Both the position numbers and the translations under genes were made by a program. This document shows positions 48,330 through 63,795 of a stretch of DNA of 64,000 bases, piece by piece (position 1 is the stretch's first letter; every line of letters begins with the position of its first letter). The notes beneath the pieces are model-generated. The model saw nothing but the letters and a program-made list of their open reading frames with translations, was not told where the DNA came from and ran no database searches. The stretch lies in NCBI RefSeq assembly GCF_988243305.1, contig NZ_OZ547136.1. One strand, 5' to 3'.

Positions 48330-48466
48330 ATGGCAAAGCCGATCATCACGCTCAATGGCCTAAAAATCGTCATTATGTTGGGAATGCTGGTCATTATTCT
48401 CTGCGGTATCCGTTTTGCCGCCGAGATCATCGTGCCGTTTATTCTCGCATTATTTATTGCTGTTAT
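48330..48466 (+). pseudogene. tqsA: tqsA (ydgG) 5' fragment, codons 1-45, interrupted by the satellite
   Basis: It encodes [46 protein letters not shown], then runs into element sequence (YNLFHITR-stop). Confidence 0.9.
48458..48466. repeat. attL core / target duplication TGCTGTTAT
   Basis: An identical 9-mer occurs at 63787-63795. The tqsA sequence is continuous if one copy plus the insert is removed. Confidence 0.85.
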
Positions 48467-48540
48467 ATATAACTTATTTCACATAACACGTTGATTTAAT
48501 TAAATAATTTTCACCGCAAAAAGTGCCAAAAATCGCAAAA

Positions 48541-48599
48541 TGACTACACCAGTGACTACACCGTTCGGTGCACTGTATGAAACAACGTGGAACAAATAG
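48541..48599. repeat. Left-arm repeat block: TGACTACACC-AGTGACTACACC followed by ..GAAACAACGTGGAACAA
   Basis: It is homologous, in direct orientation, to the block at 63636-63705 just inside the other end. These are likely integrase arm-type sites. Confidence 0.7.
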
Positions 48600-48825
48600 A
48601 CACAAGAAATATACAGGCGGATCATCTTTCCAGGGGGAAGCGCACCAATTCATGAGGGGCGTTAATGTCGATATGGGGATCCCCACCTACCGGAATTTTT
48701 TTCCGGTTAAACGTTAATCAGGCTGGTGGGCTTTACCTGTTCGGTAGGTGTTATGATTATCGTAATACCTTTCCCCCAATGGGGTAAAAGCATCAACCGT
48801 AACGAAAGTCGTTATGGTTGCCACT

Positions 48826-48899
48826 GATACCCCAAATTTGGGTATCACGAGTAAGACCCAAAATCTGGGTGTTACTCTTACTACCCAAACTACGGGTAG
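48826..48899. repeat. Three inverted repeats at a 27-bp period (GATACCCCAAATTTGGGTATC / ACCCAAAATCTGGGT / CTACCCAAACTACGGGTAG)
   Basis: I read them directly. The centres are at about 48836, 48863 and 48890. Confidence 0.85.
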
Positions 48900-48918
48900 T
48901 TTCCGTAGTTTCATGGTC

Positions 48919-48938
48919 GAGTTGCAGATCTGCAACTC
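48919..48938. repeat. Perfect 20-bp palindrome GAGTTGCAGATCTGCAACTC
   Basis: I read it directly. The reverse complement of the first 10 nt equals the last 10 nt. Confidence 0.95.
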
Positions 48939-49231
48939 CCCCATTAACCACAGGCGAATTTCCGCCTTCGGTCATTCCTTAATCATCTGCGTAATCATAA
49001 TGATTATTCAGCAAGCGCAATTTTGCACTTTGCTTAAAGTTCAGCGAGTTACCGCGCCGACTTCCTCAAATTGAGGTTTCCGAAAATATCAGCGGGTTAG
49101 CGATTAAGCTGATCATTAATTAAACTGCGAAAATTTCGTAGTTTGTGACTGTCTTTCAGGCAGCTTGTTAACAGTCCTCAGAAGCGAGGGATGTAGCCAC
49201 CCATTTTTGGTCCGTCGGGAATATCAACCAG

Positions 49232-49513
49232 TTACCGCCGCAACCGCTCCGGCTTCTTCCAGTGGTACGTTATTTTCTCCTTCTCCCGATACATCTCCAC
49301 GCGGCGACGGTAGGCCAGCAACTCAAGAACTCTGGTTCGTATGTTGCGCATATCCACGCCATTAAGTTCTATACCATCACGGCGCATCACCTCAGCAACA
49401 ACACGCGCATAGTTTTCGGCTGTCACGCTGTCCGGCTGCGTGGCCTGTTCGTCAGCCTGCTGGCTGATTCCGGCAACGCGGCGGATTAATCCCGTTATTT
49501 CGGCTTCTGTCAT
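49232..49513 (-). CDS. Hypothetical protein (93 aa) downstream of terL
   Basis: The ORF MTEAEITGLIRRVAGISQQADEQ.. is tightly spaced after terL. I recognise no family. Confidence 0.5.
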   Translation of the reverse strand: MTEAEITGLIRRVAGISQQADEQATQPDSVTAENYARVVAEVMRRDGIELNGVDMRNIRTRVLELLAYRRRVEMYREKEKITYHWKKPERLRR

Positions 49514-49526
49514 GCTGCTGACCTCA

Positions 49527-51188
49527 TTACACCCCGCTAAATTCTTCCAGTTTCTGGCGGTGGCTGTCGCTTATATCAAAAGCAAAATCCTCATGCTCTG
49601 CCTGGAATGTACCAAACGCCATCAGCGCCGCCACGCTCGGGTCTATCTTGTTCGGTGATTTTTTCTTGTTCGGCTTGATATTGGCGTTCGCGTCACTCTG
49701 CATCACGACGTTACTCATCGACCAGGACAACACCGGATCGCCACGATGCACAATCACCCTGCGGTTAACAAAAACTTCGAACGATTTCGCCGCCGGACTG
49801 AATCTGAGGTAGGTTTGCGGGAACGGCTCCACCTCAAAACCTGCCCCCTGTAATTGCGTTCTGAGATGCGTGGCGTTCCACGTATCAAAGCCCACCAGCC
49901 TGATATTAAATTTCTCCGCGTCCTGCATGATGTCATCTCTGATCCGGTCGTAATCAATGCAGTCGCCAGGCGTTGTGCGTATCCAGCCTGCTTTAGCCCA
50001 CTGACGATAGATGGCGCGGTTTTTATTGGCGGGGTTCTGTAGCTGAAATTCCGGCAGATAGTGACGGGAAACCAGCATAATGGTTTTACCGACCGGAAAG
50101 GCATAGCACACGCTGGAAATATCGCTGGTTGATGATAAGTCCAGCCCCGCGTAACACTCCTGGCCGTGTAAATCTTCCTCCGTGAACGTTCCGGCACACT
50201 CAGCCCATGCGCCGTTACCCATCCACGGGGTAGCCCCCAGGCACCAGATATTAAATCGCTTTGTCATCATCTCCACCCACTGCGACGGAATACCCCGCGC
50301 TTTCTGGATGGTTGAGGCCAGTTTTTCACGATCCACGGAAACATCAATATTAGGGTTCGCCTTTATCCACATCGCCGGATCATCAACCTCGTTTTCGTCG
50401 TCCAGTTCGTAAATCAGTACAAAAATTGAATCGTTGACCTCTTCGCCGTCCAGGATCTGGCAGCAATAATCATAGTGCTGCTTACAGGCTGAAACGACGT
50501 TACTGCCTGATGTGGTAATAGCAAATAACAGCCCTTCGGGACGTGCGCCCATCCCCAGCTCAAGCGCGGAATAAACGCCGTTATCGGGGTGCAAGTGGTA
50601 TTCGTCCACGATGGAAAGGCTGGGGTTTGTTCCCTCGATGGTTGCCGCTTTTGCTGCCAGCGGCTTTAACAGGCTGTTGCTTTTCGGGTGTATCACCTTA
50701 TGCGCCTGAATATTCACCCGCCTGCGTAACGGTCGGGATAAAAGGCACATCTGACGCGCATCATCAAAGACGATCCGCGCCTGGTCACGGCTCACCGCTG
50801 CGGTGTAAATATCCTGCTGACCGTTCTCCATAATCAGAAACCAGTTAGCCAGAATCGCGGCGGTCGTGGATTTCGCATTTTTGCGCGGCACTTCGATAAA
50901 GGCGCTCGTGTATTTGCGCCGTCCGGTGGCCTTAACCTTAAAGCCGAGGATGCACGCAAAGGCGAACTGCTGCCACGGCTCCAGCTCAATGGGTCTGCCA
51001 CGCATCGGCCCTTTTACGTGCGGGCACACCCTGGAAAAGGCAATAAACCGCTCCACAACCTCACGATCGAACGTGTAAAGGGGGCTTTCAAGGTCCGAAA
51101 AGTACCGTTTAACGGCCTGTTTCAGCCGTTTACAGGCCGGAATTTTGCCCGTTTTTACGTCTTCTGCGTACTTATTCCAGGCGGTCAA
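49527..51188 (-). CDS. terL: Terminase large subunit
   Basis: The 553-aa ORF has an ATPase region (..EVPRKNAKSTTAAILANWF..) and a nuclease C-terminus. It overlaps terS. Confidence 0.9.
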   Translation of the reverse strand: MTAWNKYAEDVKTGKIPACKRLKQAVKRYFSDLESPLYTFDREVVERFIAFSRVCPHVKGPMRGRPIELEPWQQFAFACILGFKVKATGRRKYTSAFIEVPRKNAKSTTAAILANWFLIMENGQQDIYTAAVSRDQARIVFDDARQMCLLSRPLRRRVNIQAHKVIHPKSNSLLKPLAAKAATIEGTNPSLSIVDEYHLHPDNGVYSALELGMGARPEGLLFAITTSGSNVVSACKQHYDYCCQILDGEEVNDSIFVLIYELDDENEVDDPAMWIKANPNIDVSVDREKLASTIQKARGIPSQWVEMMTKRFNIWCLGATPWMGNGAWAECAGTFTEEDLHGQECYAGLDLSSTSDISSVCYAFPVGKTIMLVSRHYLPEFQLQNPANKNRAIYRQWAKAGWIRTTPGDCIDYDRIRDDIMQDAEKFNIRLVGFDTWNATHLRTQLQGAGFEVEPFPQTYLRFSPAAKSFEVFVNRRVIVHRGDPVLSWSMSNVVMQSDANANIKPNKKKSPNKIDPSVAALMAFGTFQAEHEDFAFDISDSHRQKLEEFSGV

Positions 51189-51528
51189 GCTCGTCCTCTT
51201 CTTCTGTTTCCGGTGGATTTTTACGGCGGCTTATCGGGTCAAAACCGAGCAAGGAGGCCATTTTTATCATCACCCTTTCAGCGTCGGATTTTGCGCTTAA
51301 TGCGGGGTTTCTGCTCTCGCCGCCCTGACTGTTAACAATGCTGAACCCGCGCGCCGCAAGGTCTGCAACGGCTTTCCGGTAAATGGAGTAGTTGACACAA
51401 TACAGTTCCAGATTGCTCCAGTCGGCGGGGGTCAGGTCTCCCCGTTCCGCAAGCTGCCGCGATTTTTCCCGCCACTGCTTCACGGCGATGTCATCCAGGT
51501 AGGCGGGGGCTTTCGGTGGTCTTGCCAT
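51172..51528 (-). CDS. terS: Terminase small subunit (P27 family)
   Basis: The 118-aa ORF MARPPKAPAYLDDIAVKQWREKSRQLAERGDLTPADWSNLELYCVNYSIYRKA.. has the typical P27-type TerS pattern. Confidence 0.85.
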   Translation of the reverse strand: MARPPKAPAYLDDIAVKQWREKSRQLAERGDLTPADWSNLELYCVNYSIYRKAVADLAARGFSIVNSQGGESRNPALSAKSDAERVMIKMASLLGFDPISRRKNPPETEEEDELDRLE

Positions 51529-51651
51529 ACTTATTTTTTCGCCAGATTATTTTTCAAAAAATTCCCGTGCATAAAAATTTGAGGAGGCGTTCGGTGCCCG
51601 GCGGGGTCGGGTTTGTCCTGAAAACGCCCCCCACCCCGTCATACAGCCTCA
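51529..51651. other. Candidate cos region between the HNH module and terS
   Basis: A non-coding gap has AT-rich flanks around the GC-rich block GGTGCCCGGCGGGGTCGGGTTTGTCCTGAAAACGCCCCCCACCCCG. Its position is analogous to cos in HNH-dependent HK97-like packaging systems. Confidence 0.35.
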
Positions 51652-51825
51652 TCAGCGATTGCGGAAACATTCCATAACCTCGCGGTCACGGTCGGTTAAT
51701 CGCTTCGCTGTGATGCGTTCTGCGCGTCCTGACGCTTTATCTTTATGCCCTGTTTCCTGTGTCTTCCATGCGTCACGCTGCCTTATAAGTCCACGGATAA
51801 GGCGGTTTTGTTCCCGCTCATTCAT
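51652..51825 (-). CDS. Possible 57-aa basic protein, translationally coupled to HNH
   Basis: The ATG overlaps the HNH stop. It encodes MNEREQNRLIRGLIRQRDAWKTQETGHKDKASGRAERITAKRLTDRDREVMECFRNR. I recognise no family. Confidence 0.3.
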   Translation of the reverse strand: MNEREQNRLIRGLIRQRDAWKTQETGHKDKASGRAERITAKRLTDRDREVMECFRNR

Positions 51826-52258
51826 CAGCGTCATACATCCAGTTATTGCGGTTAGCGGACCGTTCTTCCTCTTCACGAAATCCACCTGCGGCACGCTTGC
51901 TTTTTGTTGCCGGATCAAGCCATTTCGTTTTCTGGTTATGACACGCCTGACACAATGGCTGATGGTTCCATTCGGGCCAGAAGAGAACATCATCGCCGCC
52001 ATCGATGGGGATAATGTGATCCACCACCACGGCGGGCGTATATATCCCCTTCTCAAGGCATCGCACGCATAACGGGTTTTTACTCAGATACATGGCGCGG
52101 TATTTGTCCCACTGTCTGGAGTACCCACGCGCGCGGCGGTGTCCTCGTCTGGCATCCTCTGCACGCCATGCCGCCCGCCTGTGCTCCTCACACTTACCGG
52201 ACTTAACGCGCCTGTTACAGCCTGGTTCTGTACATCGTCTTAATGGTTGCCACGGCAT
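51818..52258 (-). CDS. HNH endonuclease (packaging-associated)
   Basis: The 146-aa ORF carries ..CVRCLEKGIYTPAVVVDHIIPI..WNHQPLCQACHNQKT. It lies adjacent to the terminase genes. Confidence 0.9.
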   Translation of the reverse strand: MPWQPLRRCTEPGCNRRVKSGKCEEHRRAAWRAEDARRGHRRARGYSRQWDKYRAMYLSKNPLCVRCLEKGIYTPAVVVDHIIPIDGGDDVLFWPEWNHQPLCQACHNQKTKWLDPATKSKRAAGGFREEEERSANRNNWMYDADE

Positions 52259-52554
52259 CAGTACACCCCCACATCACGGTAAGCCGTCCAGAGTGCGCCT
52301 ATCGTCATGGGTACGCGCGTTTTTGCGTTATCCGCGACAATCTGGCGATTTTCATACAGGTGAGCGATAAACATCATGCAGCCAATCTTTATGGCTGGCG
52401 TGAACTCCAGCCCGTCATCAAAGCGCCTGCCTATGTGTATCTGGCACGCCTCAAGCGATGCGGCAATGTATCCGCTGATTAACTGGTCTTCATCGTCGCC
52501 ATCGATGCGGCAATGGAGTTTCACTTCTTCCAGGGTGATAAGTTCTTCTGTCAT
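52258..52554 (-). CDS. gp6-like head-tail connector protein
   Basis: The 98-aa ORF MTEELITLEEVKLHCRIDGDDEDQLISGYIAASLEACQ.. has the typical Phage_connect_1 N-terminus. Confidence 0.8.
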   Translation of the reverse strand: MTEELITLEEVKLHCRIDGDDEDQLISGYIAASLEACQIHIGRRFDDGLEFTPAIKIGCMMFIAHLYENRQIVADNAKTRVPMTIGALWTAYRDVGVY

Positions 52555-52889
52555 TTTTCCGCGCCCTCACGACAAAGAATTTCAAGGCGTGTCCTGGCGG
52601 CATCCGGCAACGGTTGCCCGATGATATTCAGTACACGCCCCGCCAGCGGCCCTGTATTGACCTTTATCCGACTGGTGGCGTTGATGTCCTTCCGGTAGCG
52701 TATCCATATCCTTACCGTTCCAGTCGCCAGCTCTGCACCTGATGAAATGGCCTCCTTGCTGCTGATCATGTTCACGCTTGCCCAGAGTGTGTGACCGTCC
52801 ACCCACGTTTCGAGTATTTCGCCGGTTATATCCCTGGTCTGTTTCAGGGTCTGAATCGTTACCCTGTCACGCAGTCGCCCTATGTTCAT
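52551..52889 (-). CDS. Head closure / head-tail adaptor protein
   Basis: I trimmed the start to MNIGRLRDRVTIQTLKQTRDITGEILETWVDGHTLWASV.. (112 aa), an SPP1 gp16/HK97-type pattern. Confidence 0.75.
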   Translation of the reverse strand: MNIGRLRDRVTIQTLKQTRDITGEILETWVDGHTLWASVNMISSKEAISSGAELATGTVRIWIRYRKDINATSRIKVNTGPLAGRVLNIIGQPLPDAARTRLEILCREGAEK

Positions 52890-54097
52890 TCCGGTTTTTC
52901 TCCCTCGCTGATTTTTACTTCCTGTTTCCATGCCTGGCTGAACTCATCACCACCATCACGCGGGGACAGCCCTTCACGTTCGCGGGCTTCGTTCGGGCAC
53001 ATAACGCCGGATTTGATGCCGCGTTCATAGGTGGCAAAGCGTTCGCCAGGTGTGGCCCGTAACAGGTCCGCGCTGTCAAACTCCACCTGATACCGGATAC
53101 CAGGTACAGGCGAGGCCACCAGCAGGGCGTTTTTTATCTGCTGCTCAAAGTTCGCCAGCCACGGGCGCATCGTCATGGTGAGAAATGCGCGGCTTGCCTC
53201 GCTGAAGTTGCTGTAGGTGCTGTTGCTGTATTCCTGCAAAAAAATCGGCGAGACGTTGAACATTCGGGCGATGTCTTCAATGGTGAAGCGACGGGAGGCC
53301 AGCCATTCGGCATCCTGATTACTCATGCCCAGCTGCTGATAGCTCATCCCCCCTTCAAGGATGGGCGTTTTTCCGGCGTTTCTGGCCCCTTTGTAGCGTT
53401 CCAGTGCGGCTAATGCCTGTTTGCCCTTCACGCCGTCCAGCCATTCGCCTGACGTGATAACCCCTGCCGCCATCATGCCATCACGCATCACGCTCGCGCC
53501 GTGGCGTTGTTGGGCCAGCCCAAGCCCCAGCGATTCGCGGCAGATGGTTACAGGTGAGCGCCCCATAAAACCGTCATCCGTGGAGTAACGAAGGTGGAGA
53601 ACCTCCCACGGTAAATAGTTGCGGGTGTTTCCGGTGTAGGCGTCAGTGATGCAGTAGCGCCAGTTATGATCACCTGTCTGCTCCACGTTCACCGACTGCG
53701 GCGGGTAAGGATGTAAAGCCACCGGAAAACCATCACGCCCCCACTGAATCACCGCATAAGCATTACCGTTTAACAGGCAGTGGCGGATCATCATTCGCTT
53801 AAACTGGTAGGGAGTCTGCCACGCGTTCGGGCGCTCGTTGAGGATGTGATCGACCGGATGAGAATCAAGCCACTCGCGGGCCTCCTTCCCCTTCTCATTG
53901 CGTACCAGGTACAGGTAACACGGCATGGTAGCCACCGCCTCAGAGATGACCGTCACGGCGTTCATGACGGCGGGCAGTGATTCCGCTGTCCCCGATGATA
54001 CGTACTCACCCGCCCCCGTGTTCGATGTGCCAGCCAGCGCCATAAACTCATCAAGCGTCATGCTGCGCTGCTCTTTTTTTCTTCTGAAAGGCCACAT
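52886..54097 (-). CDS. Portal protein (HK97 family)
   Basis: The 403-aa ORF carries ..LLNGNAYAVIQW.. ..RRFTIEDIARMFNVSPIFL.. motifs. Confidence 0.9.
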   Translation of the reverse strand: MWPFRRKKEQRSMTLDEFMALAGTSNTGAGEYVSSGTAESLPAVMNAVTVISEAVATMPCYLYLVRNEKGKEAREWLDSHPVDHILNERPNAWQTPYQFKRMMIRHCLLNGNAYAVIQWGRDGFPVALHPYPPQSVNVEQTGDHNWRYCITDAYTGNTRNYLPWEVLHLRYSTDDGFMGRSPVTICRESLGLGLAQQRHGASVMRDGMMAAGVITSGEWLDGVKGKQALAALERYKGARNAGKTPILEGGMSYQQLGMSNQDAEWLASRRFTIEDIARMFNVSPIFLQEYSNSTYSNFSEASRAFLTMTMRPWLANFEQQIKNALLVASPVPGIRYQVEFDSADLLRATPGERFATYERGIKSGVMCPNEAREREGLSPRDGGDEFSQAWKQEVKISEGEKPE

Positions 54098-54098
54098 A

Positions 54099-54671
54099 TC
54101 ACACCCCCGCTAAATCCACCCACCAGCGGCGATTATCCGCACGCGGCATTTTTTCGGGGTGCTGCTCATACAGGGAACGGCGGGCCAGCTCCACGCCGGA
54201 ATCGGGGTAAGCCGGTACCGATGTAACGGTAATTTCGTACAGTTCCGCCACCAGCACGGTGCGCACGCATGGATCTGTTGTGGTATCCCATACATCCTTA
54301 CGGGAGCGAAAGCCAAAGCTCATCCCCGAGATGTCCCCACGCTTAACCAGTTCGATAACGTCGCGCCCTGTACTGGTATCCGGTGGGGTCAGTTCAAAGC
54401 GTAACCCTGTTTCGTCCTCTTCCAGTTTCAGCGTGCCGGAACGGGTGCGCCCCAGTAACATGCTGTGGTCATGCTCATACAGGCCGCGAACGTCATTACC
54501 CGCCGCAAGCCACTCAGTAAACGCCCCCCGCTGGAATTTTTCGTAAAACTCCCCCCATAGCAGTTCTGAAAGCTTATCCCAGCGAACAACGTAGCCCGTC
54601 AGCGTACCGGCTCCGCTGGTAGTGATTTCCGATGACCGGATTTCCATACTCTTCATAATTTTTTCACCCAT
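54099..54671 (-). CDS. Prohead maturation protease (HK97 family)
   Basis: The 190-aa ORF carries ..GYVVRWDK.. ..LYEHD..LLGRT.. ..GDISGMSFGF.. Confidence 0.9.
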   Translation of the reverse strand: MGEKIMKSMEIRSSEITTSGAGTLTGYVVRWDKLSELLWGEFYEKFQRGAFTEWLAAGNDVRGLYEHDHSMLLGRTRSGTLKLEEDETGLRFELTPPDTSTGRDVIELVKRGDISGMSFGFRSRKDVWDTTTDPCVRTVLVAELYEITVTSVPAYPDSGVELARRSLYEQHPEKMPRADNRRWWVDLAGV

Positions 54672-54710
54672 AAAACACTAAAGGGGCTTTTAAGCCCCTT
54701 CTGTATGCTG

Positions 54711-56394: not shown

Positions 56395-56489
56395 TGTTTT
56401 TTCCTCTGTTGTGTCTGTTTGTTTCAGATAGTAACTATGCCTGACCGTGACGAAAACCCGGTAATGCGCCATACCGTTTCAACTGGTGC

Positions 56490-56513: not shown

Positions 56514-56563
56514 GTGTGATTAGCTGTCCTGGTAATTGCGCCATATTTCATCACCAGCACCAT

Positions 56564-56791
56564 CTATCCCCATTTCGGCATAAGTGCGATCGACTGCCTT
56601 TTCAGGTCTCCGTAATTATCCGGTGGCTCCGGTGGCCTCTGTGCCTTCCTGGAACATTCCAGCCGTCGCATCGTGATGTGATGCCGTTCCTTGTCTGTCT
56701 CCACCAGCAGCATGACTTCACCCCATCGCGCCGACGCCCTCCGGTAAAATCCTTTAGCCTCGAGTTCCTCCGCTATGCGGTCATGTACCAT
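56564..56791 (-). CDS. PerC/Pch-family transcriptional activator-like protein
   Basis: I trimmed the start to MVHDRIAEELEAKGFYRRASARWGEVMLLVETDKERHHITMRRLECSRKAQRP.. (75 aa). The LE.KG.YRRA..RW motif is the PerC family core as I recall it. Confidence 0.55.
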   Translation of the reverse strand: MVHDRIAEELEAKGFYRRASARWGEVMLLVETDKERHHITMRRLECSRKAQRPPEPPDNYGDLKRQSIALMPKWG

Positions 56792-56801
56792 CCTCACCCC
56801 C

Positions 56802-57212
56802 TCAGAACGGAATACCGTCACCGTAAGGGTCATCGCCTCCCGCTGGTGGCTGATTACCCTGTGTGCCTGTGGTTTTGCGTCTGTTCCCGCCAGGACGTGC
56901 CGCACGGGCACTGATTACGCTGTCTGCAATAACCTGCCAGCCCTGCCGCGTTTCTCCGTTCTGTCCGGTCCACTGGCTTACCTGCATCGTGCCGGATACG
57001 CTGGCAACATCGCCTTTTTGATGTTTAGCCAGGAAGTCGGCCTGTTTGCCAAATGCGATGACCGATAACCATAACGTCGCCTGTCCGTCCTGTGCCTGGC
57101 TGCATGGCAAAGATACCGCCATACGCGCCAGCGTCATCGGTGTGCCCTTGCTGGTCTGTTTTACCTGCGGGTCGTCCACCAGCCGCCCGTAAGCGGCTAT
57201 CTGTGCCGTCAT
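56802..57212 (-). CDS. ssb: Single-stranded DNA-binding protein
   Basis: The 136-aa ORF has an OB-fold N-terminus (AAYGRLVDDPQVKQTSKGTPMTLARMAV), a Gly/Pro-rich linker and an acidic tail DDPYGDGIPF. Confidence 0.8.
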   Translation of the reverse strand: MTAQIAAYGRLVDDPQVKQTSKGTPMTLARMAVSLPCSQAQDGQATLWLSVIAFGKQADFLAKHQKGDVASVSGTMQVSQWTGQNGETRQGWQVIADSVISARAARPGGNRRKTTGTQGNQPPAGGDDPYGDGIPF

Positions 57213-57460
57213 AATTCCACCTCTCCGGTTTTAACGTTGATGGTTGTTACCTGTTCCGCTTCGGCAATCTCCCGTTCTGTCAGCGTGGCAAAGTTTGCCG
57301 CCGCCGTGGTCATGAATGCGCTTATCAGGTCGGGATGTTCCTTCGCGTATCCTTCCCGCGTGTGGCGGTCTATCGTTCTGATTGCCACCTTTAAAGCGTG
57401 CTCAGTCATGTCTAACGCTTTATATTTTGGCTCTGTTCTGTCTCTGCGTTTTTGGGTCAT
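57209..57460 (-). CDS. Hypothetical protein (83 aa)
   Basis: I trimmed the start to MTQKRRDRTEPKYKALDMTEHALKV.. with a GAGAGG SD. It overlaps the ssb start. Confidence 0.45.
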   Translation of the reverse strand: MTQKRRDRTEPKYKALDMTEHALKVAIRTIDRHTREGYAKEHPDLISAFMTTAAANFATLTEREIAEAEQVTTINVKTGEVEL

Positions 57461-57662
57461 TTCTCGCAACCTCTCACTTTTTCGCCTCACTTTTTCAAGC
57501 GTCTCACTTCGTCGCAGTTGGGATTTTCGGTTTTTCTATGTGTGTGTTTCATAAGTATTTTTTTACCCCTCACTTTTGAGGATGTATACAGGTCGAAAAG
57601 TGAGGGAGAGCGGGCTAATTTTGGCCCTCTTTCTATCCCCCTCGCTTTTGCTCCTCACTTTT
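57461..57662. repeat. ori: Replication-origin-like iteron field (CTCACTTTT x6-7, one inverted pair, AT-rich core)
   Basis: Iterons occur at 57473, 57486, 57503, 57569, 57596 (inverted), 57641 (variant) and 57654. The AT-rich stretch TTCATAAGTATTTTTTTAC lies immediately 3' of the rep gene. Confidence 0.7.
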
Positions 57663-59061
57663 ATAGCGGCGCTACATCATCCCCATCGATACGAATAACC
57701 CCATCTTTTTCCAGCTTGTACAGCCAGCGCCGGAAGTTTTTCATTTCATACCCCAGTTTTTTCATGTCATCACGTAACAGCGGGATCGTGCACTTGTCGC
57801 CGTTCTGTGTGCGTGAACGGATGCACCCCCATAGCGCGGTATGGTTTTCCGTCTTGTTCCCTGCCTCCTCGATGCGCTCCAGTTCAACAGGAGGGCGCGG
57901 ATCATCCACCACTACCAGCGACGTGATTAATTCACCGTCAGCGTCGGTAAAAAGCTCCACCACGCGTAAGTCATATGCGGCTTCTTTGAGTTCCTCCGCG
58001 TCCTTCATTTTGGTGCATGAGATAACCAGCGCTTCGCTTCCTGCGTCCTCCCTGCGTATCCGGTATTCAGCATCCAGCGAAGCACGAAATGCACTGGAAC
58101 CGCGCGCGCCTTTCGTCTCATCCTTGCCGGAATGGTGAACCACCAGCACCGTGGCCCCTGTGCGTCGTTTCAGTTCGTCACAACCACGGATAAACGCCCC
58201 CATATCACGGGAATCATTTTCATCATTCCCACCAAAGCAACGCGCCAGCGTATCCAGAATAATCATGCGTACAGGTTTACCCGTTTCCCGCTCCACCTGA
58301 CGGGCAGCGATAACCATTTCATCAACATCAAGCGGGGCAGCCGGAAAGATGGGGCGGTTTACCAGATACAGATTTTTCACCTGCTCATCGTGCACAACCT
58401 CCCAGGCTTTTACACGACGCGGAACACCTATACCGCCTTCACCAACCACATAGAGAACCGCACCATGTGCAACCCTGCGGCCTCCCCACTGGCGACCAGT
58501 GGCAACATGGCACGCCCACGATCCGGCAAGGAATGATTTATAGGACCCGCTAGCCCCGTATATGCTGCATAGCGATACCGCCGGAATAATCCCCTTAACC
58601 ACGTAATCCAGTTGCGTGTCGTATCCGGTAGATCCAACGCTCATCGGTAGCGTGGTTTTTCGCTGGTGGTTTTTTTCTTCCACCGGCTCTTTCCCGCGCA
58701 CCCGTTCCAGGTATTCGCGCCAGTTCTCCCGCATATGGCTGTGCATCCCTTCGGGGTAATAATTCGCATCAGTTACACCCGCCGCCGCCAGCTTGTGCGC
58801 AATGGCATTAATATTTGATGGCCTGATGTGGCCTGCCTTGTACAGCCGGACACAATAGCGCCCCTCGTCGATGATTCTCAGGTCTGCCAGTTCATCCAGT
58901 TGATCATCAGCCAGCACAACGGGAGGCACATTATCGCCAGCCAGTCGCCCGTCCTGTTCCTGCCACTGTTTCGCATGTGCCCAGGCATCACTACCCGCAA
59001 AAATAATGACTTCGGTCATCTTGTCGTAAGGCTGTTTTTTTAAGTTCGGTGCGCTTTTCAT
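57661..59061 (-). CDS. RepA/DnaB-like AAA_25 ATPase (satellite replication initiator-helicase)
   Basis: The 466-aa ORF has Walker A GASGSYKS, Walker B RMIILDTLAR and ..VLVVHHSGKDETKGARGSSAF.. Confidence 0.8.
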   Translation of the reverse strand: MKSAPNLKKQPYDKMTEVIIFAGSDAWAHAKQWQEQDGRLAGDNVPPVVLADDQLDELADLRIIDEGRYCVRLYKAGHIRPSNINAIAHKLAAAGVTDANYYPEGMHSHMRENWREYLERVRGKEPVEEKNHQRKTTLPMSVGSTGYDTQLDYVVKGIIPAVSLCSIYGASGSYKSFLAGSWACHVATGRQWGGRRVAHGAVLYVVGEGGIGVPRRVKAWEVVHDEQVKNLYLVNRPIFPAAPLDVDEMVIAARQVERETGKPVRMIILDTLARCFGGNDENDSRDMGAFIRGCDELKRRTGATVLVVHHSGKDETKGARGSSAFRASLDAEYRIRREDAGSEALVISCTKMKDAEELKEAAYDLRVVELFTDADGELITSLVVVDDPRPPVELERIEEAGNKTENHTALWGCIRSRTQNGDKCTIPLLRDDMKKLGYEMKNFRRWLYKLEKDGVIRIDGDDVAPL

Positions 59062-59357
59062 TTCTTGCCCCTGAATCCGTTAATCATGGTTTTCAGCTTC
59101 TGGATGTTTGCCCGTGCCCTGGCGTTGCTGGTGGGCACGTTATGCGGCGCGGTCTGTACCAGAGAAAAATCACGCCGGAACTGATAAACAGGCATCACGC
59201 AATCATATTCGTAACCTTCACGGCGGTAGGTTACGCGCCGTTCTTCCACGCCCTTAATCATTACCGTGCCGCCGTACTGGTCGCGGTAAATATCACCGCG
59301 CGTAAATTTAGGGTGAGTGTTGCCACTGGCAGTTAAGCCAGAATATTTAAGTTTCAT
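59058..59357 (-). CDS. Hypothetical protein (99 aa)
   Basis: The ORF belongs to the tightly packed early operon. Confidence 0.5.
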   Translation of the reverse strand: MKLKYSGLTASGNTHPKFTRGDIYRDQYGGTVMIKGVEERRVTYRREGYEYDCVMPVYQFRRDFSLVQTAPHNVPTSNARARANIQKLKTMINGFRGKK

Positions 59358-59362
59358 TATTT

Positions 59363-59596
59363 TTATTCTCCGGTGTGCTGTTCTTTATATCTGTCGTGCA
59401 ATAGATCTATTTCTTGCAGTTCCATTATTACAGGCTCAAGAAGCGTTATTAATGCCGTGGCAATTCTTGATTTTTGTTTGTCGCGTTCATTGTCGCCAAG
59501 TGTTTCAAGCCATATGCGCAATATTTCCAGCATGTTTTCACTGTGAGAAAGTGCAAGAAATACGCGGTCTATTGTTTCGTGGTAAATATCACGCAT
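59363..59596 (-). CDS. Hypothetical protein (77 aa)
   Basis: The ORF belongs to the tightly packed early operon. Confidence 0.45.
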   Translation of the reverse strand: MRDIYHETIDRVFLALSHSENMLEILRIWLETLGDNERDKQKSRIATALITLLEPVIMELQEIDLLHDRYKEQHTGE

Positions 59597-59597
59597 A

Positions 59598-59819
59598 TTA
59601 ATCCCCGTCCGTCGTTTTTCTTAAAATAACCTCTGTCACGAAATCAGCATAATCGGCGGCGATATTCAGTACATCAAGCCCCGTTGATTTATATTCTCTC
59701 GTGGAAAGTAAGAAAAAAGCCGCTCTAATAAGTTCTGGCATTGACGAAAGCGCATCAGCCGCATCATCAGGAACGCCGGAAAATTCCTGTTTCAGGGAAT
59801 TAAAACGATCATCACGCAT
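59598..59819 (-). CDS. Hypothetical protein (73 aa)
   Basis: The ATG lies 2 nt after a G9 tract. Confidence 0.45.
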   Translation of the reverse strand: MRDDRFNSLKQEFSGVPDDAADALSSMPELIRAAFFLLSTREYKSTGLDVLNIAADYADFVTEVILRKTTDGD

Positions 59820-60034
59820 AACCCCCCCCCATTTTCACAATCAGCAACAAGAATATTTTTAGCGTCATTCAGCGACCGCGTTGCGATGTATCGGATACAT
59901 TCCAGGGCGAACTGTGTCCGGTCTTTCTGTTCTTCTCCCTGCGCAAGCTCTGCAGTGCATTCAATATCGATAAGCGCGTGCATCAGCGTAGTGAGCGCGG
60001 CGGCTGCTGCGTCCGGTGTGGTTTTATTGCACAT
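59792..60034 (-). CDS. Hypothetical protein (80 aa)
   Basis: I trimmed the start to MCNKTTPDAAAAALTTLMHALIDIE.. An AGGAGG SD lies 6 nt upstream. The 3' end runs through the G9 tract. Confidence 0.5.
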   Translation of the reverse strand: MCNKTTPDAAAAALTTLMHALIDIECTAELAQGEEQKDRTQFALECIRYIATRSLNDAKNILVADCENGGGLCVMIVLIP

Positions 60035-60224
60035 GGCACACCTCCTGACGAATACGGGCGGCGAATACAGCAACACAACCGGACGGGCAACGGCTACGCG
60101 CTTCGCGTTCCGTCCAGGCGGTTACGTGGATGATTTGAGATTCTCCGGCACTTAGTGCCAGAAAACGCCACACAAAGGCCGTTTGTGTGTGTATAAGGCG
60201 TGGTATATGATTTACGGCAACCAT
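60024..60224 (-). CDS. Icd-like (host cell-division inhibitor-like) small protein, first gene of the early operon
   Basis: It encodes MVAVNHIPRLIHTQTAFVWRFLALSAGESQIIHVTAWTEREARSRCPSGCVAVFAARIRQEVCHVQ (66 aa) with a GGAG SD. The W.F.A....EAR....FAAR pattern resembles P4-type Icd-like proteins as I recall them. Confidence 0.5.
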   Translation of the reverse strand: MVAVNHIPRLIHTQTAFVWRFLALSAGESQIIHVTAWTEREARSRCPSGCVAVFAARIRQEVCHVQ

Positions 60225-60286
60225 AACGGCTCCTAGTTTACGTTGTTGGTTAGACGCCCCGTATGTGTTCCCAGCACTGCGGGGCG

Positions 60287-60361
60287 TTGATTTTTGTGTA
60301 ATGGCAAGTACAATGGTAATTACCATGTAGGTATAGTAATGAAGGGTAATTACCATGTCAA
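60287..60361. promoter_or_regulatory. Overlapping opposed promoters plus two copies of the operator GGTAATTACCATGT
   Basis: The plus strand reads TTGATT(60287)-16-TACAAT(60309). The minus strand reads TTGACA(60361-60356)-17-TACTAT(60338-60333). The operators are at 60313-60326 (14-bp perfect palindrome) and 60345-60354. Confidence 0.6.
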
Positions 60362-60528
60362 CACCATTAGAAAAACGTTCGCCTCCATACCAAATGCGAT
60401 TACCGGAAGACTTCAGAGCGCAGCTAGAAGAAGCAGCTAAGGCCGATGGCGACACATCTTTAGCCACTTGGATTAAACGCGTTCTCCGCAAAGAATTACA
60501 GCAACGCGGCATAGAGCCAAAAGGTTGA
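60355..60528 (+). CDS. Arc/Mnt-type ribbon-helix-helix repressor (57 aa)
   Basis: I translated it by hand: MSTPLEKRSPPYQMRLPEDFRAQLEEAAKADGDTSLATWIKRVLRKELQQRGIEPKG. It has the classic RHH pattern. It is not in the ORF track. Confidence 0.7.
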   Translation: MSTPLEKRSPPYQMRLPEDFRAQLEEAAKADGDTSLATWIKRVLRKELQQRGIEPKG

Positions 60529-60549
60529 ATTTCAGAAGGAGATAAAATA

Positions 60550-60702
60550 ATGAACTGGCTGTTACATACCCTCCCAGGTCGCATTCTCATTGCACTAATT
60601 ATTTTATGGATTTTGTACCAATTCGGTTTTTTCGATTCGCTTTGGAAGCCTGACTGTTCCGTTAACCCTGGCGATGTACTGAAAGGCTGTAAAAATGGCT
60701 GA
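60550..60702 (+). CDS. Small single-TM protein (50 aa) co-transcribed with the RHH repressor
   Basis: An AAGGAG SD lies 8 nt upstream. It encodes MNWLLHTLPGRILIALIILWILYQFGFFDSLWKPDCSVNPGDVLKGCKNG and is followed by the hairpin CCCTCTTAAAGAGGG. Confidence 0.5.
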   Translation: MNWLLHTLPGRILIALIILWILYQFGFFDSLWKPDCSVNPGDVLKGCKNG

Positions 60703-61057
60703 TCAGGGTTACTCCCTGTAATGCCTTTAACTGGCCCTCTTAAAGAGGGTTGGTTATCTTCGCAGCTCTCTACGTTTTTCGTCGGAACCTCTGAACCTAA
60801 GCAGTGTTGATGTTCAGGAGAACCCGAATACTGTTCGTGTTCGTTGCTCGCCAATTCTCGCGTTTCGCGATAATCAAAATGATTCAATGGGTTGAGATGT
60901 CCGTACGTTAAACGTACGCGGTTAATTTGTACATGCGAATTTCGTCGGCTCAAATTCTGCGCAACCCTGCTTGAGTTATGCAAATAGCACGCGGCTAACT
61001 CACAAGGATTTGAGCGCCCCCAAACGGGGGAGCGCAAAATTTTAGGCATAAGACGCA

Positions 61058-61771
61058 TCAGCGAATCTCCAACACTGACGATGAAGTGATCAGGCTGGCG
61101 AACGCATCCATACGGCGGGCAACCTCACGCACCGCATCGCCTGGACTCATGTCATTACGCACCGCCTCATTAAAGGCCGCCTGTTCGATTTTCTGCATCA
61201 CTACCAACAGCCCCAATTGCTGTTCGTCTGCGGTACCGCGTTCACCATCAGACAAACCAGCCACGCGGTTTTCAGCGCGGGCCAGATTGATGTAATGGTG
61301 CCGTTGTGCGCCCAGAGCTTTTAATCTGTCGCGGCTTTCGTGATAGCCAGGCAGGTACTCACGGCGGATAGGTTCTGCGGCGCGGCGCTTAGTGAATGCC
61401 TTCGTAACATCCAGTTTGAACTGGTTAATACGCTCAGGATCACGCCCTCGGGTGATACGCAGCAGATAGTCGAGCTGCGGCTCATTCAGCAGATAACTAA
61501 TCTCAGGACGCCCACGCTTTCGGCCGGATTTTCCCGATTTCAAATCGGTTAATTCCTTGAGTGACTGACGAGGCAGTGATCCCAGCTCGCGCAATCTGCT
61601 CTGGTGCGATTTAATCGTCGCGCTTAAGCTTTCATGTTGTATTCCGGCTCGCTCTGAAATAACGCGGGAATCGATACGCGGCTCCGATTTGTGATTAATT
61701 AAAATATCGCTCTGGCTGGCTTCAGGGCGAACGAATCCCCGCCCACGTTCTGGCGTATATTCAATCTTCAT
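61058..61771 (-). CDS. Putative phage regulatory protein (Rha/antirepressor-like N-terminal region), 237 aa
   Basis: ..SEPRIDSRVISERAGIQHESLSATIKSHQSRLRELG.. and ..YLLNEPQLDYLL.. resemble Rha-type regulators. The assignment is tentative. Confidence 0.4.
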   Translation of the reverse strand: MKIEYTPERGRGFVRPEASQSDILINHKSEPRIDSRVISERAGIQHESLSATIKSHQSRLRELGSLPRQSLKELTDLKSGKSGRKRGRPEISYLLNEPQLDYLLRITRGRDPERINQFKLDVTKAFTKRRAAEPIRREYLPGYHESRDRLKALGAQRHHYINLARAENRVAGLSDGERGTADEQQLGLLVVMQKIEQAAFNEAVRNDMSPGDAVREVARRMDAFASLITSSSVLEIR

Positions 61772-61828
61772 GGTTATAGCTCTGTGTTCAGATGATTGAT
61801 GTGTGGCGGCTGCGTGCCGCCAGCGTGA

Positions 61829-62017
61829 TTAATGAACTGCCTTGCAGCTATCCTTCCAGGCCAGAACCTCGGATAAAGACCAGCCAACGGAACGACCGCC
61901 AAGTTTACGACGTGATGGGAATTGTCCGGCCTTTTCCAGGCGGTAGCGACACGTACGGCTAAGGCCGGTTAGTTTTTCGCATTCTTTTTCACGTATAAAC
62001 CGATCAGTGCTTAACAC
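61829..62017 (-). CDS. alpA: AlpA-family transcriptional regulator / excision factor
   Basis: The 62-aa ORF reads ..IREKECEKLTGLSRTCRYRLEKAGQFPSRRKLGGRSVGWSLSEVLAW.. Confidence 0.85.
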   Translation of the reverse strand: MLSTDRFIREKECEKLTGLSRTCRYRLEKAGQFPSRRKLGGRSVGWSLSEVLAWKDSCKAVH

Positions 62018-62167
62018 TATTGCCCCCTTTCGTTTCTTAAAGAGTCATCAGGTGTCTTATTGTGTCGTATTGTTCCCGCTAGAGTGATAAATGGCAAATA
62101 CTGAGGATGTATGATTTACAGAAAATGAAACAGTAAGAATAAAATCTTTTAAATTCATGTTAATACA

Positions 62168-62199
62168 AAGGCATAAAATATTGTTTCATGCCTTTTTTC
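62168..62199. terminator. Hairpin AAGGCAT-13 nt-ATGCCTT with a plus-strand T-run, between int and alpA
   Basis: I read it directly. Orientation is ambiguous: it may be the int terminator on the minus strand or the end of a short plus-strand RNA. Confidence 0.35.
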
Positions 62200-62381
62200 T
62201 CGCTCTTTAAAGAGTGATTCGCTAGTGTATAAAAAACCAGTAACGCATTAAAAATCAGCTACTTATAAATCCGTACGCTTTTTCGCCTCTTGTTCGTAGT
62301 TGTTCCACATTGTTGCTCATTGTTGCACGTTGTATCTGTTCGCATATACAGTATGCGCATACTGAAAAAACACGAAAAAAA

Positions 62382-63599
62382 TTATTTTCTTCTGGCTACT
62401 GGTAGCGTGGTTACGTTTTCATGTGTTCCCGCCAGTATCCCTAACCGCTCCGTCCACATATCCAGCGCATTGCGTTTAGCATCCAGATAACGGGAATGAT
62501 TATAAACTCGCTGCATTCCTGGCATCTGGTGGCCTGTAAGCTGCTCCACGACATGCGGATCAACGCCTAAATCGTTCAGCATGGTTGTAAAGGTGCGCCG
62601 GATGTCATGCAGTGACCAGTGAGGATGATTAAGCCTCCTGTGCGCTAATCTTCCATACTGCGATACGCTGGCCTCCTGTTTCACTTCCCCCAGCAATAAG
62701 CCCGTGTGCCTGTTCTGCTCCACCAGCTGCGTGACGAACGGCAGGATCGCTTCCGGTATGGGCCGGAATATTGCGACCTTCGTTTTGCTGTGCTCCTTCG
62801 GAACGGTCCATAGCATTTCCGTAAAATCCCACTCCCCGATCTCCGATAACCTCAGTTCTACCGTTCTGGCTCCGAAGACAATCAGGAGGCGGATTAACGC
62901 GACGTAGTAAGGGGAGAATATTTTTTTGTCCAGTGCCTGCAATAATTCGCCAAGTTCTTTGTTACTTAAGACACGTTCGCTTATATCCGGTTTTTTCCCA
63001 ACGTCCGCCACGTTCAGATCGTCCAGAACGTTGCTGATTGCATAGCGCCGCCTACGGCAGAACTTAAGCGCCTGTTTGCACGCCTGTAGCACGAATCCGG
63101 CAGTAACAGGCGTTCGCTTTGCCACCTGGTCAAAACAGGCCAGCCAGTGCCGTAGCTCGCATTTATCCAGCGGCATAGCACCAATCTGCTGTATTACGTG
63201 ATTATTAAGTCGCCTTTTCAGGGCGATATAATCCACGCGGTTTTCCTTTACGTAATACTCAAGCCAGTAGGTGAGCGCATCGCCAACCGTTACGGGCTTT
63301 AACGCTTCCTGTACGGTGTAATTCATCTCATGACGTGGATTTTTCCCCTCAGCCAGCCATGTGCGACACTGTGCGGCTTTTTCCCTGGCTGCTTTCAGGC
63401 TCAGATCAGGATAACTTCCCAGCTTAATGCGTTCGGGTCGTGTCTCCCTTCCCGTTCCGGCCCTGTATGTGAAATACCAGGTCAATTTCCCTGATGTTAA
63501 ATATTTCACGCTCAGGTTTCCGCCATCACTATAAAACGTGTTTTTCTCCGCTGGCTTACCATGAAGTTTCCTTAGCAAGGTATCGCTCAGTTTGTTCAT
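62382..63599 (-). CDS. int: P4-type tyrosine integrase
   Basis: The ATG start gives MNKLSDTLLRKLHGKPAEKNTFYSDGGNLSVKY.. (DUF4102-type arm-binding N-terminus). The catalytic region reads ..HDIRRTFTTML..LTGHQMPGMQRVYNH. The track ORF starts 4 codons earlier at a GTG. Confidence 0.9.
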   Translation of the reverse strand: MNKLSDTLLRKLHGKPAEKNTFYSDGGNLSVKYLTSGKLTWYFTYRAGTGRETRPERIKLGSYPDLSLKAAREKAAQCRTWLAEGKNPRHEMNYTVQEALKPVTVGDALTYWLEYYVKENRVDYIALKRRLNNHVIQQIGAMPLDKCELRHWLACFDQVAKRTPVTAGFVLQACKQALKFCRRRRYAISNVLDDLNVADVGKKPDISERVLSNKELGELLQALDKKIFSPYYVALIRLLIVFGARTVELRLSEIGEWDFTEMLWTVPKEHSKTKVAIFRPIPEAILPFVTQLVEQNRHTGLLLGEVKQEASVSQYGRLAHRRLNHPHWSLHDIRRTFTTMLNDLGVDPHVVEQLTGHQMPGMQRVYNHSRYLDAKRNALDMWTERLGILAGTHENVTTLPVARRK

Positions 63600-63635
63600 T
63601 GCTCTGCTCACGTTTTACCCCCTCTTTACGAAAAA

Positions 63636-63705
63636 GTGACTACACCAGTGACTACACCGATCGTTGCACAAAGGGCTACAACGTGAAACAAGCTGGAACA
63701 AGGAA
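63636..63705. repeat. Right-arm repeat block: GTGACTACACC-AGTGACTACACC followed by ..ACAACGTGAAACAAGCTGGAACAA
   Basis: This is the partner of the block at 48541-48599. It lies 25-95 bp upstream of the int start. Confidence 0.7.
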
Positions 63706-63786
63706 AATCACAAATCTGTTGATAATCAAAAACATAATGCACAGCCTGAAACATTATGAAACAGCAAAAAACACTAAATGATAAAA

Positions 63787-63795
63787 TGCTGTTAT
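63787..63795. repeat. attR core / target duplication TGCTGTTAT
   Basis: See the partner repeat at 48458-48466. Confidence 0.85.

Follow-up and report, generated by a model that had tools for sequence, protein, structure and literature searches.

The stretch of DNA analysed here, 64,000 nucleotides of contig NZ_OZ547136.1 (assembly GCF_988243305.1) and hereafter called the window, contains a tqsA gene, coding for the autoinducer-2 (AI-2) exporter, that is split by an insert at positions 48467-63795. An initial annotation, made from the letters alone, had described this insert as a tail-less, capsid-encoding phage satellite of 15,329 bp, bracketed by an exact 9-bp direct repeat, whose removal would restore the tqsA reading frame. 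The boundaries were borne out. The 9-mer TGCTGTTAT has only two matches in the 64-kb window, i.e., the attL core at 48458-48466 and the attR core at 63787-63795. With 0.48 matches expected by chance and two or more in 8 of 100 shuffles, the pair alone is weak evidence for the boundaries, and it is the rebuilt junction that proves them. When 48467-63795 (15,329 bp) is deleted, the 5' part of tqsA is joined in frame with its continuation (MAKPIITL...), and 48330-48466 followed by 63796 onward reads as an uninterrupted TqsA N-terminus. Of 5422 complete E. coli genomes, 5159 (about 95%) contain the rebuilt 505-bp attB without a break, once at 100% identity; the crossover region lies within tqsA codons 45-47. 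About 5% of complete E. coli genomes have no unbroken tqsA site, and a junction of integrase and tqsA at least 95% identical to that of the window occurs in about 209 genomes (about 4% of complete genomes have this integrase at tqsA).

The gene content of the insert was assessed with protein family scans against Pfam, NCBIfam, and PHROG. Every gene that the initial annotation had named, from the integrase and AlpA through a Rha-like regulator, an Arc-like/Icd-like pair, four small proteins, RepA with an iteron origin, SSB, and a PerC-like protein to a head and packaging set, is present and intact, although the Rha-like match is weak and below the Pfam cut-off. All of these lie on the minus strand except for the Arc-like gene, which lies on the plus strand. 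The insert is tiled by minus-strand genes, the largest gene-free stretches being 765 bp (48467-49231) and about 830 bp (60225-61057, which contains the Arc-like gene), and therefore a tail module has no room. The earlier claim that no tail, holin, or endolysin gene stands between the repeats agrees with this tiling and with the scans: no match to tail, holin, lysin, or defence families was found in the element by Pfam, NCBIfam, PHROG, or PADLOC, and the open reading frames (ORFs) tested within 48467-49231 and near the right end gave no Pfam match. One caveat to this result is an ORF of 50 aa on the plus strand (60550-60702), which follows closely on the Arc-like gene, is hydrophobic in an N-terminal segment, and matches no family. 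Read along the minus strand, the order is int and alpA, then the Rha-like gene and a long open frame resembling P4 eta, then a DUF4222 gene, RepA, the origin, and SSB, and finally the packaging operon. That order fits the four-zone organisation described for Gram-negative phage-inducible chromosomal islands (PICIs), namely Integration, Bro, Replication, and Late, all read in one direction (PMC10111431). All 11 hallmark genes of capsid-forming PICIs (cf-PICIs), on a component list inferred from the text of PMC10085698, are intact, and their lengths equal those of EcCIEDL933, the prototype cf-PICI.

At the attR end, reading inward, lies the gene for a 409-aa tyrosine integrase with an arm-binding domain (62382-63611, minus strand; Pfam Arm-DNA-bind_3 and Phage_integrase), whose sequence agrees at 100% with the integrases found in other tqsA-borne elements and at 91% with the EcCIEDL933 enzyme. 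It is followed by alpA (61829-62017, minus strand; Pfam Phage_AlpA, 5e-17), which encodes the 62-aa master activator and excision factor. The AlpA protein shows no difference from that of EcCIEDL933 and is 45% identical to P4 Vis/ORF88. The pairing of an integrase with an AlpA-type regulator at one end, as expected of a cf-PICI, is thus seen per Pfam.

The late module carries most of the argument for what the element is. We located EcCIEDL933 in the EDL933 genome between roxA and phoQ and compared the two islands, as the initial annotation had suggested. From orf83 and SSB through the late module (57462-49220), they share 96.7% DNA identity over 8.2 kb; the int-alpA region shares 93.5%. The packaging proteins differ by 0 to 9 amino acids each, and the product of the last small ORF by 12. 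The late operon runs, entirely on the minus strand, from the HK97-fold major capsid protein (385 aa, 54711-55868; Pfam Phage_capsid, 2e-61; one difference from EcCIEDL933) through the S78 prohead protease (54099-54671; Pfam, 7e-48; five differences), the portal protein (52886-54097; Pfam, 7.5e-91; three differences), the head-tail adaptor or head-closure protein (52551-52889; Pfam Phage_HCP; seven differences, 94% identical), the gp6-like connector (52258-52554; Pfam Phage_connect_1; one difference, 99% identical), an HNH endonuclease (51818-52258; Pfam HNH; one difference), the 60-aa orf60 product (51652-51834; no difference), the P27-type small terminase TerS (51172-51528; Pfam Terminase_4; no difference), and the large terminase TerL (49527-51188; Pfam TerL_ATPase and TerL_nuclease; nine differences) to the 93-aa orf93 product (49232-49513; 12 differences). 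Per Pfam, the element therefore has its own capsid set, its own adaptor and connector, and its own HNH, TerS, and TerL. The capsid protein retains the maturation motif S93TGVPAD (S93-x-G-x-x-A-D) as well as residues D257, K290, D295, E319, and R345, mutation of which impairs EcCIEDL933 transfer (10.1101/2025.02.11.637232). Mismatches with the prototype at codon positions 1, 2, and 3 number 8/2/59 in terL and 1/0/10 in the capsid gene; the late genes are under strong purifying selection.

For the prototype itself, the function of these genes has been described. EcCIEDL933 assembles small capsids out of proteins that it encodes itself, fills them with no DNA but its own, and borrows nothing but tails (10.1101/2022.09.08.507074; He et al. 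2025 preprint, 10.1101/2025.02.11.637232), the choice of tail being set by the adaptor and the connector (10.1101/2025.02.11.637232). Mutants in its packaging genes lost transfer and a mutant in gene 1792 was severely reduced, whereas phage capsid mutants had no effect (10.1101/2022.09.08.507074). Counting on from the major capsid protein as gene 1786, gene 1792 is probably the counterpart of orf60. Induction of EcCIEDL933 depends on a helper phage and needs alpA (10.1101/2022.09.08.507074); AlpA stimulates its own promoter, and excision, replication, and transfer all need it.

Outside the shared modules, the two islands diverge. Gene order and size class are the same (15.3 kb here, 15.4-15.5 kb for the prototype); AlpA, TerS, and orf60 are identical, and the capsid protein, connector, and HNH endonuclease are each one residue apart. 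EcCIEDL933, however, sits between roxA and phoQ, while the element in the window sits in tqsA and has different arm repeats, and at least 25 of the 36 changes between the integrases fall within the first 129 residues, which include the arm-binding domain. Where EcCIEDL933 has a DUF927 primase, the element has an AAA_25 RepA helicase with AAGTGAG iterons, and where the prototype has a single 247-aa gene before its Icd-like gene, the element has the Rha-like gene, the long open frame, and the antisense Arc-like gene. The small ORFs of EcCIEDL933 also differ from those found here, and 60296-61722 is unrelated in sequence to the prototype. On these comparisons, the element is best described as a mosaic relative of EcCIEDL933.

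Elements covering at least 80% of the one in the window were found in 58 complete E. coli genomes, the best covering 89% at 98% identity, and independent assemblies are 100% identical to it over shared stretches. We take this distribution as a sign that the element is live and circulating. For brevity, we refer to some of the compared loci by label: L001 (E. coli 14EC001), L002 (O157 strain 2571), L004 (E. coli 300709), and L015 (a cf-PICI near yhdJ). The tqsA-borne cf-PICIs of E. coli 14EC001 and 6883 (NZ_CP024127 and NZ_CP074998) have the same att site, integrase, RepA, and late module and are 98% identical over 89% of the element, but do not have the Rha-like/Arc-like module at 60296-61722. 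In the 14EC001 copy, the closest relative among complete genomes, the head-closure/adaptor gene is interrupted by an IS1A (L001 10406-11103), and this copy is probably unable to form tail-competent capsids.

At the same tqsA site, E. coli 300709 carries a classical PICI of about 11 kb (L004 7445-18400) with a primase and lambda-type capsid and decoration genes and no portal or terminase. Its integrase is 100%, its AlpA 97%, and its terminal orf93 product 87% identical to those of the element. More generally, classical Gram-negative PICIs such as EcCICFT073 and that of 300709 share the integration zone, att site, DUF4222 gene, small ORFs, and orf93 with the element, but have no portal, adaptor, connector, HNH, TerS, or TerL and rely on helper capsid proteins. 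The tqsA gene is thus an attachment site common to PICIs and cf-PICIs (same core, identical integrase), and certain attB sites have been reported to be common to the two (10.1101/2022.09.08.507074). In the main texts of the literature, tqsA was never named as a PICI site, the supplementary tables of the cf-PICI paper lying outside this search; the gene does appear in one paper's list of genes disrupted by prophages.

A megablast search against 50,697 phage records retrieved no true phage relative. The best match covers 24% of the element at 78% identity and is itself a cf-PICI-like element. The record LR881103.1, "Escherichia phage vB_KppS-Ant" (16.5 kb), is a cf-PICI-like genome with an integrase, a regulator, a long Icd-like ORF, a primase, a capsid set, HNH, TerS, and TerL, and it was the one match in the phage collection to a tblastn search with the Icd-like ORF. 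A 2.3-kb gene after its TerL is annotated as a tape-measure protein; this label is probably mistaken, and accessory cargo is one possible reading of the gene.

Taken together, we consider the insert to be an integrated, apparently functional cf-PICI of the EcCIEDL933 lineage, with a probability of roughly 0.9. The call is made because all hallmark components are present and none of those forbidden by the SatelliteFinder definition is. It agrees with the class that the initial annotation had proposed, and the 2023 description for E. coli to which it referred is that of Alqurainy et al. (Cell Host Microbe 2023, cited in PMC10111431; preprint 10.1101/2022.09.08.507074). The element is a new, mosaic representative of a family that is both known and common, not a class of element new to science; cf-PICIs were found in 13% of Enterobacteriaceae genomes (PMC10085698). 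The genes that mark P4-like satellites (sid, psu, delta, alpha primase) were not found, no such family having turned up in the Pfam, PHROG, and NCBIfam scans; what the element shares with P4 is confined to the Vis/AlpA and eta/kil-like parts. A complete HK97-like temperate phage, with tail, tape-measure, and lysis genes in about 40 kb, does not correspond to this 15.3-kb insert.

That the insert is instead an inert, decayed HK97-like prophage which has lost its tail and lysis genes is a reading that we find very improbable. The head genes are indeed phage-derived and of HK97 type, and the mobility of this particular copy is a prediction. However, all genes are intact, and the late genes are under strong purifying selection, as the 8/2/59 pattern in terL illustrates; the same compact layout recurs in 58 complete genomes and at several att sites, with copies identical over shared stretches in unrelated assemblies. 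The layout itself, with int, alpA, and a one-way operon, is of PICI type and not of prophage type (PMC10111431), the collection of 50,697 phage records holds no close relative, and the near-identical EcCIEDL933 is mobile (10.1101/2022.09.08.507074). The initial annotation had itself named such decay among the outcomes that would overturn its proposal. We give an equally small chance to a classical PICI or P4-like satellite whose capsid genes serve only to remodel or interfere with helper capsids, despite what the element has in common with the 300709 PICI (the tqsA site, a 100% identical integrase, alpA at 97%, and orf93 at 87%) and despite its P4-like alpA and eta/kil arrangement. It carries a portal, adaptor, connector, and TerL, and the SatelliteFinder definition (PMC10085698) forbids portal, adaptor, and connector in classical PICIs. 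The Pfam, PHROG, and NCBIfam scans contained no sid, psu, or delta homologue, and transfer of the prototype needs its own genes, phage capsid mutants being without effect (10.1101/2022.09.08.507074).

An intact cf-PICI could also be stranded in its host, with no resident phage to induce it or fit it with tails and with the knock-out of tqsA as its main effect. This is a possibility to be taken seriously, albeit one to which we lend the smaller share of our belief. EcCIEDL933 was hardly mobilised by the 17 resident prophages of EDL933 (10.1101/2022.09.08.507074), the sole prophage visible in the window is lambda-type and not of the HK97/HNH type, and tqsA is truncated. On the other hand, our view of the genome spans 64 kb only, so that other prophages may be present elsewhere, and tail-less capsids can take tails made in other cells (10.1101/2025.02.11.637232). 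Being stranded would, moreover, concern the current state of the element and is compatible with its being an apparently functional cf-PICI. Several points do weigh against that preferred identification or parts of it. Excision, replication, packaging, and the helper are predicted for this copy from the letters of its DNA; int and att, the replication genes and origin, and the zone between alpA and the replication genes all differ from the prototype, and the specificity of induction could differ with them. The adaptor carries seven substitutions, and the tail type is a prediction. The AlpA-site and cos assignments presented below derive from position and conservation, and the arrays taken for AlpA sites could be integrase sites, since L015, which has no arrays, differs in both integrase and AlpA.

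Candidate cis-acting sites were found in both att arms. Each arm holds a copy of one 76-nt module, the two being in direct orientation, and the distance to the core is about 75 bp on the attL side and about 130 bp on the attR side. The attL-side module (48537-48615, plus strand) consists of a tandem 12-mer, (A/G)TGACTACACC x2 (48540-48562), followed by a phased AACAA array (48581-48615), and the attR-side module (63633-63711, plus strand) of GTGACTACACC x2 (63636-63658) followed by a phased AACAA array (63677-63711). The arm 12-mer is GTGACTACACC here versus TTAACTACACC in the L002 element, whose integrase is 91% identical, and because the 12-mer changes with the integrase allele, we read the tandem repeats as pointing to integrase arm sites. 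The motif AACAA-N5-AACAA has eight matches in the window, seven of them in the element versus 0.16 expected. The arrays, phased at 10 bp, form four clusters: one in each att arm; one in the int-alpA gap, where four 10-bp-phased GNAACAA units in inverted orientation make up a candidate AlpA autoregulatory operator (62290-62334, minus strand); and one upstream of the capsid operon (56085-56155, minus strand), where an intrinsic terminator (56150-56133) is directly followed by a phased array (56129-56085). Arrays occupy the same four positions in L001-L003 and EcCIEDL933, and the att-arm and int-alpA positions in the classical PICI L004. The int-alpA site is kept in L001-L004 and L006 and gone in L015, which has a different AlpA. 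Loci with arrays share the AlpA type, and none was found in L015, whose regulator is very different. With moderate confidence, we propose that the AACAA arrays are AlpA sites. A 123-bp gap between orf60 and terS (51529-51651, minus strand) contains GGGGTGGGGGGCGTTTTCAGGAC, and the linear record of vB_KppS-Ant (16.5 kb, with "induced prophage" given as its source) stops right after the same GGGGTGGGGGGCGTTTTCAGGAC box. This gap is likely the cos region, bearing in mind that the start of the vB_KppS-Ant record could be arbitrary.

The zone between alpA and the replication genes is the sole part of the element for which we have no good explanation. It begins with the gene for a 237-aa Rha-like (Bro-network) protein (61058-61771, minus strand; Pfam Phage_pRha, 1.7e-5; phrog_2657, transcriptional regulator). 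The exact protein is found on at least 11 contigs, and those listed carry it either in the same tqsA context or within a piece of this element; most of the Rha-like part recurs, at 97.6% identity, in L015, which belongs to a different cf-PICI lineage. Variation among cf-PICIs in the gene that follows alpA is known (10.1101/2025.02.11.637232). Next comes the eta-like long open frame of 344 codons (60024-61058, minus strand), with no stop versus 11 to 23 in each of the other five frames, and its last 66 codons form an Icd-like/Kil-like ORF (60024-60224, minus strand; NCBIfam phage_ICD_like, 5.7e-18) with its own Shine-Dalgarno sequence and ATG. In phase with this Icd-like ORF, no stop is met for about 300 codons upstream (344 if counted from the ATG at 61058).

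Four related E. coli elements also have the frame open, as do 8 of the 12 informative loci from other genera (229-368 codons). It is closed in EcCIEDL933 and at five further loci, with an open stretch of just 19-44 codons. Its substitutions by codon position are 12/10/9 and 6/9/6 in the part free of overlap with plus-strand genes, compared with 19/11/70 and 8/2/59 in real genes of the same loci, and clean internal indels of 27, 54, and 90 nt occur within it. In every locus compared, the Icd-like ORF keeps its own Shine-Dalgarno sequence and ATG. The frame is thus held open without a conserved peptide sequence. We considered an ordinary 344-aa protein, which is unlikely given substitutions without a third-codon-position bias, and also a shadow of the antisense gene, which is unlikely as well, the frame being open well past that gene and in unrelated sequences.

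The initial annotation had said that the regulatory and accessory parts look uncharacterised. This does not wholly hold, since for the long frame and its Icd-like end a likeness to P4 eta/kil had already been noted in the Bro zone of Gram-negative PICIs (PMC10111431). In P4, as Forti et al. (1999) are cited in PMC10111431, eta, a long ORF in which kil is nested, is coupled to vis, the homologue of alpA, and translation of eta blocks immunity-specific termination. The long frame of the element matches this published arrangement: as in the P4 left operon, an AlpA-type regulator is followed by a long ORF with a nested short C-terminal ORF and then by replication genes, and a frame kept open without amino-acid constraint would fit translation as an anti-termination device. 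The Icd-like domain and the C-terminus of the P4 eta/kil ORF match the same PHROG, phrog_1743 (1e-23 and 7.5e-21), and it is on this shared PHROG that the link is based, since direct BLASTP between the two gave no alignment and hhalign a weak one (11% probability). P4 also has sid, psu, delta, and epsilon genes and a CI RNA, whereas none of these was detected in the element, which makes its own capsid.

Two features of the zone have no place in the P4 picture. One is the antisense gene within the frame, which encodes an Arc-like ribbon-helix-helix protein (60355-60528, plus strand; phrog_228 Arc-like repressor, 1.5e-6; weak YlcI_YnfO_N). A plus-strand small gene is found at the same position in L002-L004 (YlcI/YnfO) and in L015 (HicB-like), and face-to-face promoter-like sites flank the Arc-like start (60287-60314, plus; 60361-60333, minus). 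The other is a hairpin-rich block (60735-60984, minus strand) with a swapped 22-nt cassette at 60797-60820, a candidate immunity RNA or terminator region. In nucleotide alignment, E. coli, Enterobacter, and Intestinirhabdus have stretches of this block in common at 100% identity, and the block scores better in folding than shuffled sequence does (z of -3.6 and -3.7). It has no Rfam match, and its 22-nt cassette has no second or complementary copy in the window, i.e., no partner like P4 seqA/seqC. Permissive Rfam scanning of 59800-62450 revealed no C4/CI or isrK-type RNA, a P4-type CI RNA not being detectable there. We tentatively raise the idea, which we regard as unlikely, that 60024-61771 is an undescribed variant of the P4-type immunity switch and may set helper specificity in many Gram-negative PICIs and cf-PICIs. 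In such a variant, translation of the frame from the alpA transcript may override termination, and the antisense gene or an RNA from the hairpin block may silence the element. Where NCBI has called genes on identical DNA, the 50-aa ORF described above is left out; it could encode a small membrane toxin or an exclusion protein, or be no gene at all.

Downstream of this zone lie, all on the minus strand, orf80 (59792-60034), orf73 (59598-59819), and orf77 (59363-59596), each matching a PHROG family without an assigned function and nothing in Pfam or NCBIfam, and a DUF4222 gene (59058-59357; Pfam DUF4222). They are followed by the gene for the 466-aa RepA-family helicase (57661-59061; Pfam AAA_25), which is 100% identical to that of L001 and L003 and takes the place of the EcCIEDL933 DUF927 primase. 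Six copies of AAGTGAG directly downstream of RepA make up the iteron origin (57473-57660), and the iterons track the Rep allele, being AAGTGAG here versus AAGTGGGGA in L002, whose Rep is 94% identical. Judged by Pfam AAA_25 and the iterons, the cf-PICI pri-rep component with an adjacent origin is thus present, in an allele unlike that of the prototype. The region then continues on the minus strand with orf83 (57209-57460, replication region), SSB (56802-57212; Pfam SSB), a PerC-like gene (56564-56833; Pfam PerC), and two small ORFs before the late operon, orf42 (56435-56563) and orf74 (56170-56394). PHROG matches within 56170-57460 are phrog_1231 and phrog_1957.

Direct repeats of 27 nt (93% identical) lie at 56129-56155 and 56492-56518, and in both of them a hairpin, AGCCGGAG..ATCCGGCT, and the T-run behind it make a strong terminator. 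The approximately 340 bp between these repeats, which contain orf74 and orf42, are gone in the draft genome GCA_037059065.1, and this looks like a repeat-mediated deletion.

From these parts, and from what has been described for the prototype, a life cycle can be proposed. Integration is shown by the sequence: the tyrosine integrase placed the element at the 9-bp core in tqsA, which truncates the AI-2 exporter after about 47 residues. If induction proceeds as in the prototype, whose AlpA is identical, a helper phage would turn on alpA, and AlpA would activate its own promoter and serve excision, replication, and transfer. On the AACAA arrays, AlpA may act in the att arms in excision, together with integrase on the GTGACTACACC repeats, and upstream of alpA in autoregulation, and on the array after the terminator upstream of the capsid operon it may bring about late activation or read-through. 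By homology with P4 eta/kil, ribosomes would follow transcripts from the alpA promoter across the Rha-like gene and the long frame and on into the Icd-like ORF; this translation would shield the transcript from early termination such that the replication genes are reached, and the antisense Arc-like gene may keep the zone off at rest. The RepA helicase, going by its family, would fire the AAGTGAG iteron origin. With proteins 94-100% identical to those of the prototype, the capsid protein, protease, and portal would form a T=4 capsid of about 47 nm, and HNH, TerS, and TerL would cut at cos, probably within 51529-51651, and fill the capsid with one 15.3-kb genome. Lysis by the helper would then free tail-less filled capsids, which would be joined to siphovirus tails as in the prototype; because the adaptor is 94% and the connector 99% identical to those of EcCIEDL933, these tails are predicted to be HK106-type.

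The element is an intact natural variant of the best-studied cf-PICI: capsid, terminase, and AlpA are the same, and what differs is the integrase with its att site, the replication module with its origin, and the immunity zone. Module swaps with the prototype could address helper specificity, the choice of integration site, and the control of replication, and the candidate AlpA, integrase arm, and cos sites are open to direct testing. For the host, the insertion leaves a 54-codon tqsA stub (48330-48494; 47 TqsA residues plus YNLFHITR), and because the 3' part has neither its own start nor a promoter, tqsA is expected to be null in this strain. Since the element knocks out the AI-2 exporter, satellite carriage may alter quorum-signal export.

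Other cf-PICIs are expected to carry immune systems in the variable regions on either side of the packaging operon (10.1101/2025.02.11.637232). PADLOC, run on the variable genes and small ORFs, detected no recognisable cargo in these regions of the element. In the gene-poor tail of the element (48467-49231), the ORFs tested gave no Pfam or PADLOC match and the sequence no Rfam match, and similarity to EcCIEDL933 is only partial. With the whole window scanned at the Rfam gathering threshold, no structured RNA was found in the element, and permissive scans of 59800-62450 and 48400-49300 returned only noise. Two 18-nt sequences 1152 nt apart, ATCAGGCTGGTGGGCTTT / AAAGCCCACCAGCCTGAT, form a perfect inverted repeat, the first lying in the gene-poor tail (48717-48734) and the second in terL (49887-49904).

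The element is flanked by core host genes, with ydgD, mdtI, mdtJ, and ydgV on the left and the rest of tqsA, pntB, pntA, and ydgH on the right, as seen in close relatives and in other assemblies that are 100% identical over 51058-64000 and run beyond it. We looked for tail or lysis genes of the same element outside the repeats, another finding that the initial annotation had held would count against it, and none stands beside the element. Lysis genes do occur in the window, but only in a separate lambda-type prophage (about 1-27.1 kb) that has its own integrase; they are more than 20 kb from the element, and about 21 kb of core genes lie between it and the prophage. This prophage occupies a Qin-like site next to rspB, and its head and tail genes lie to the left of the window. 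Visible within the window are its lambda-type large terminase gene (704-2629) and nohD, a lysis cassette (4.4-5.6 kb, approximately), the gene for a Q antiterminator, tRNA-Arg(tct) together with another tRNA (7814-8070), hok/sok (11066-11240), cargo at 11.8-18 kb that includes MFS and BCCT transporters, DicF (22320-22371), dicB, xis, and an intact gene for a 431-aa integrase (25831-27126).

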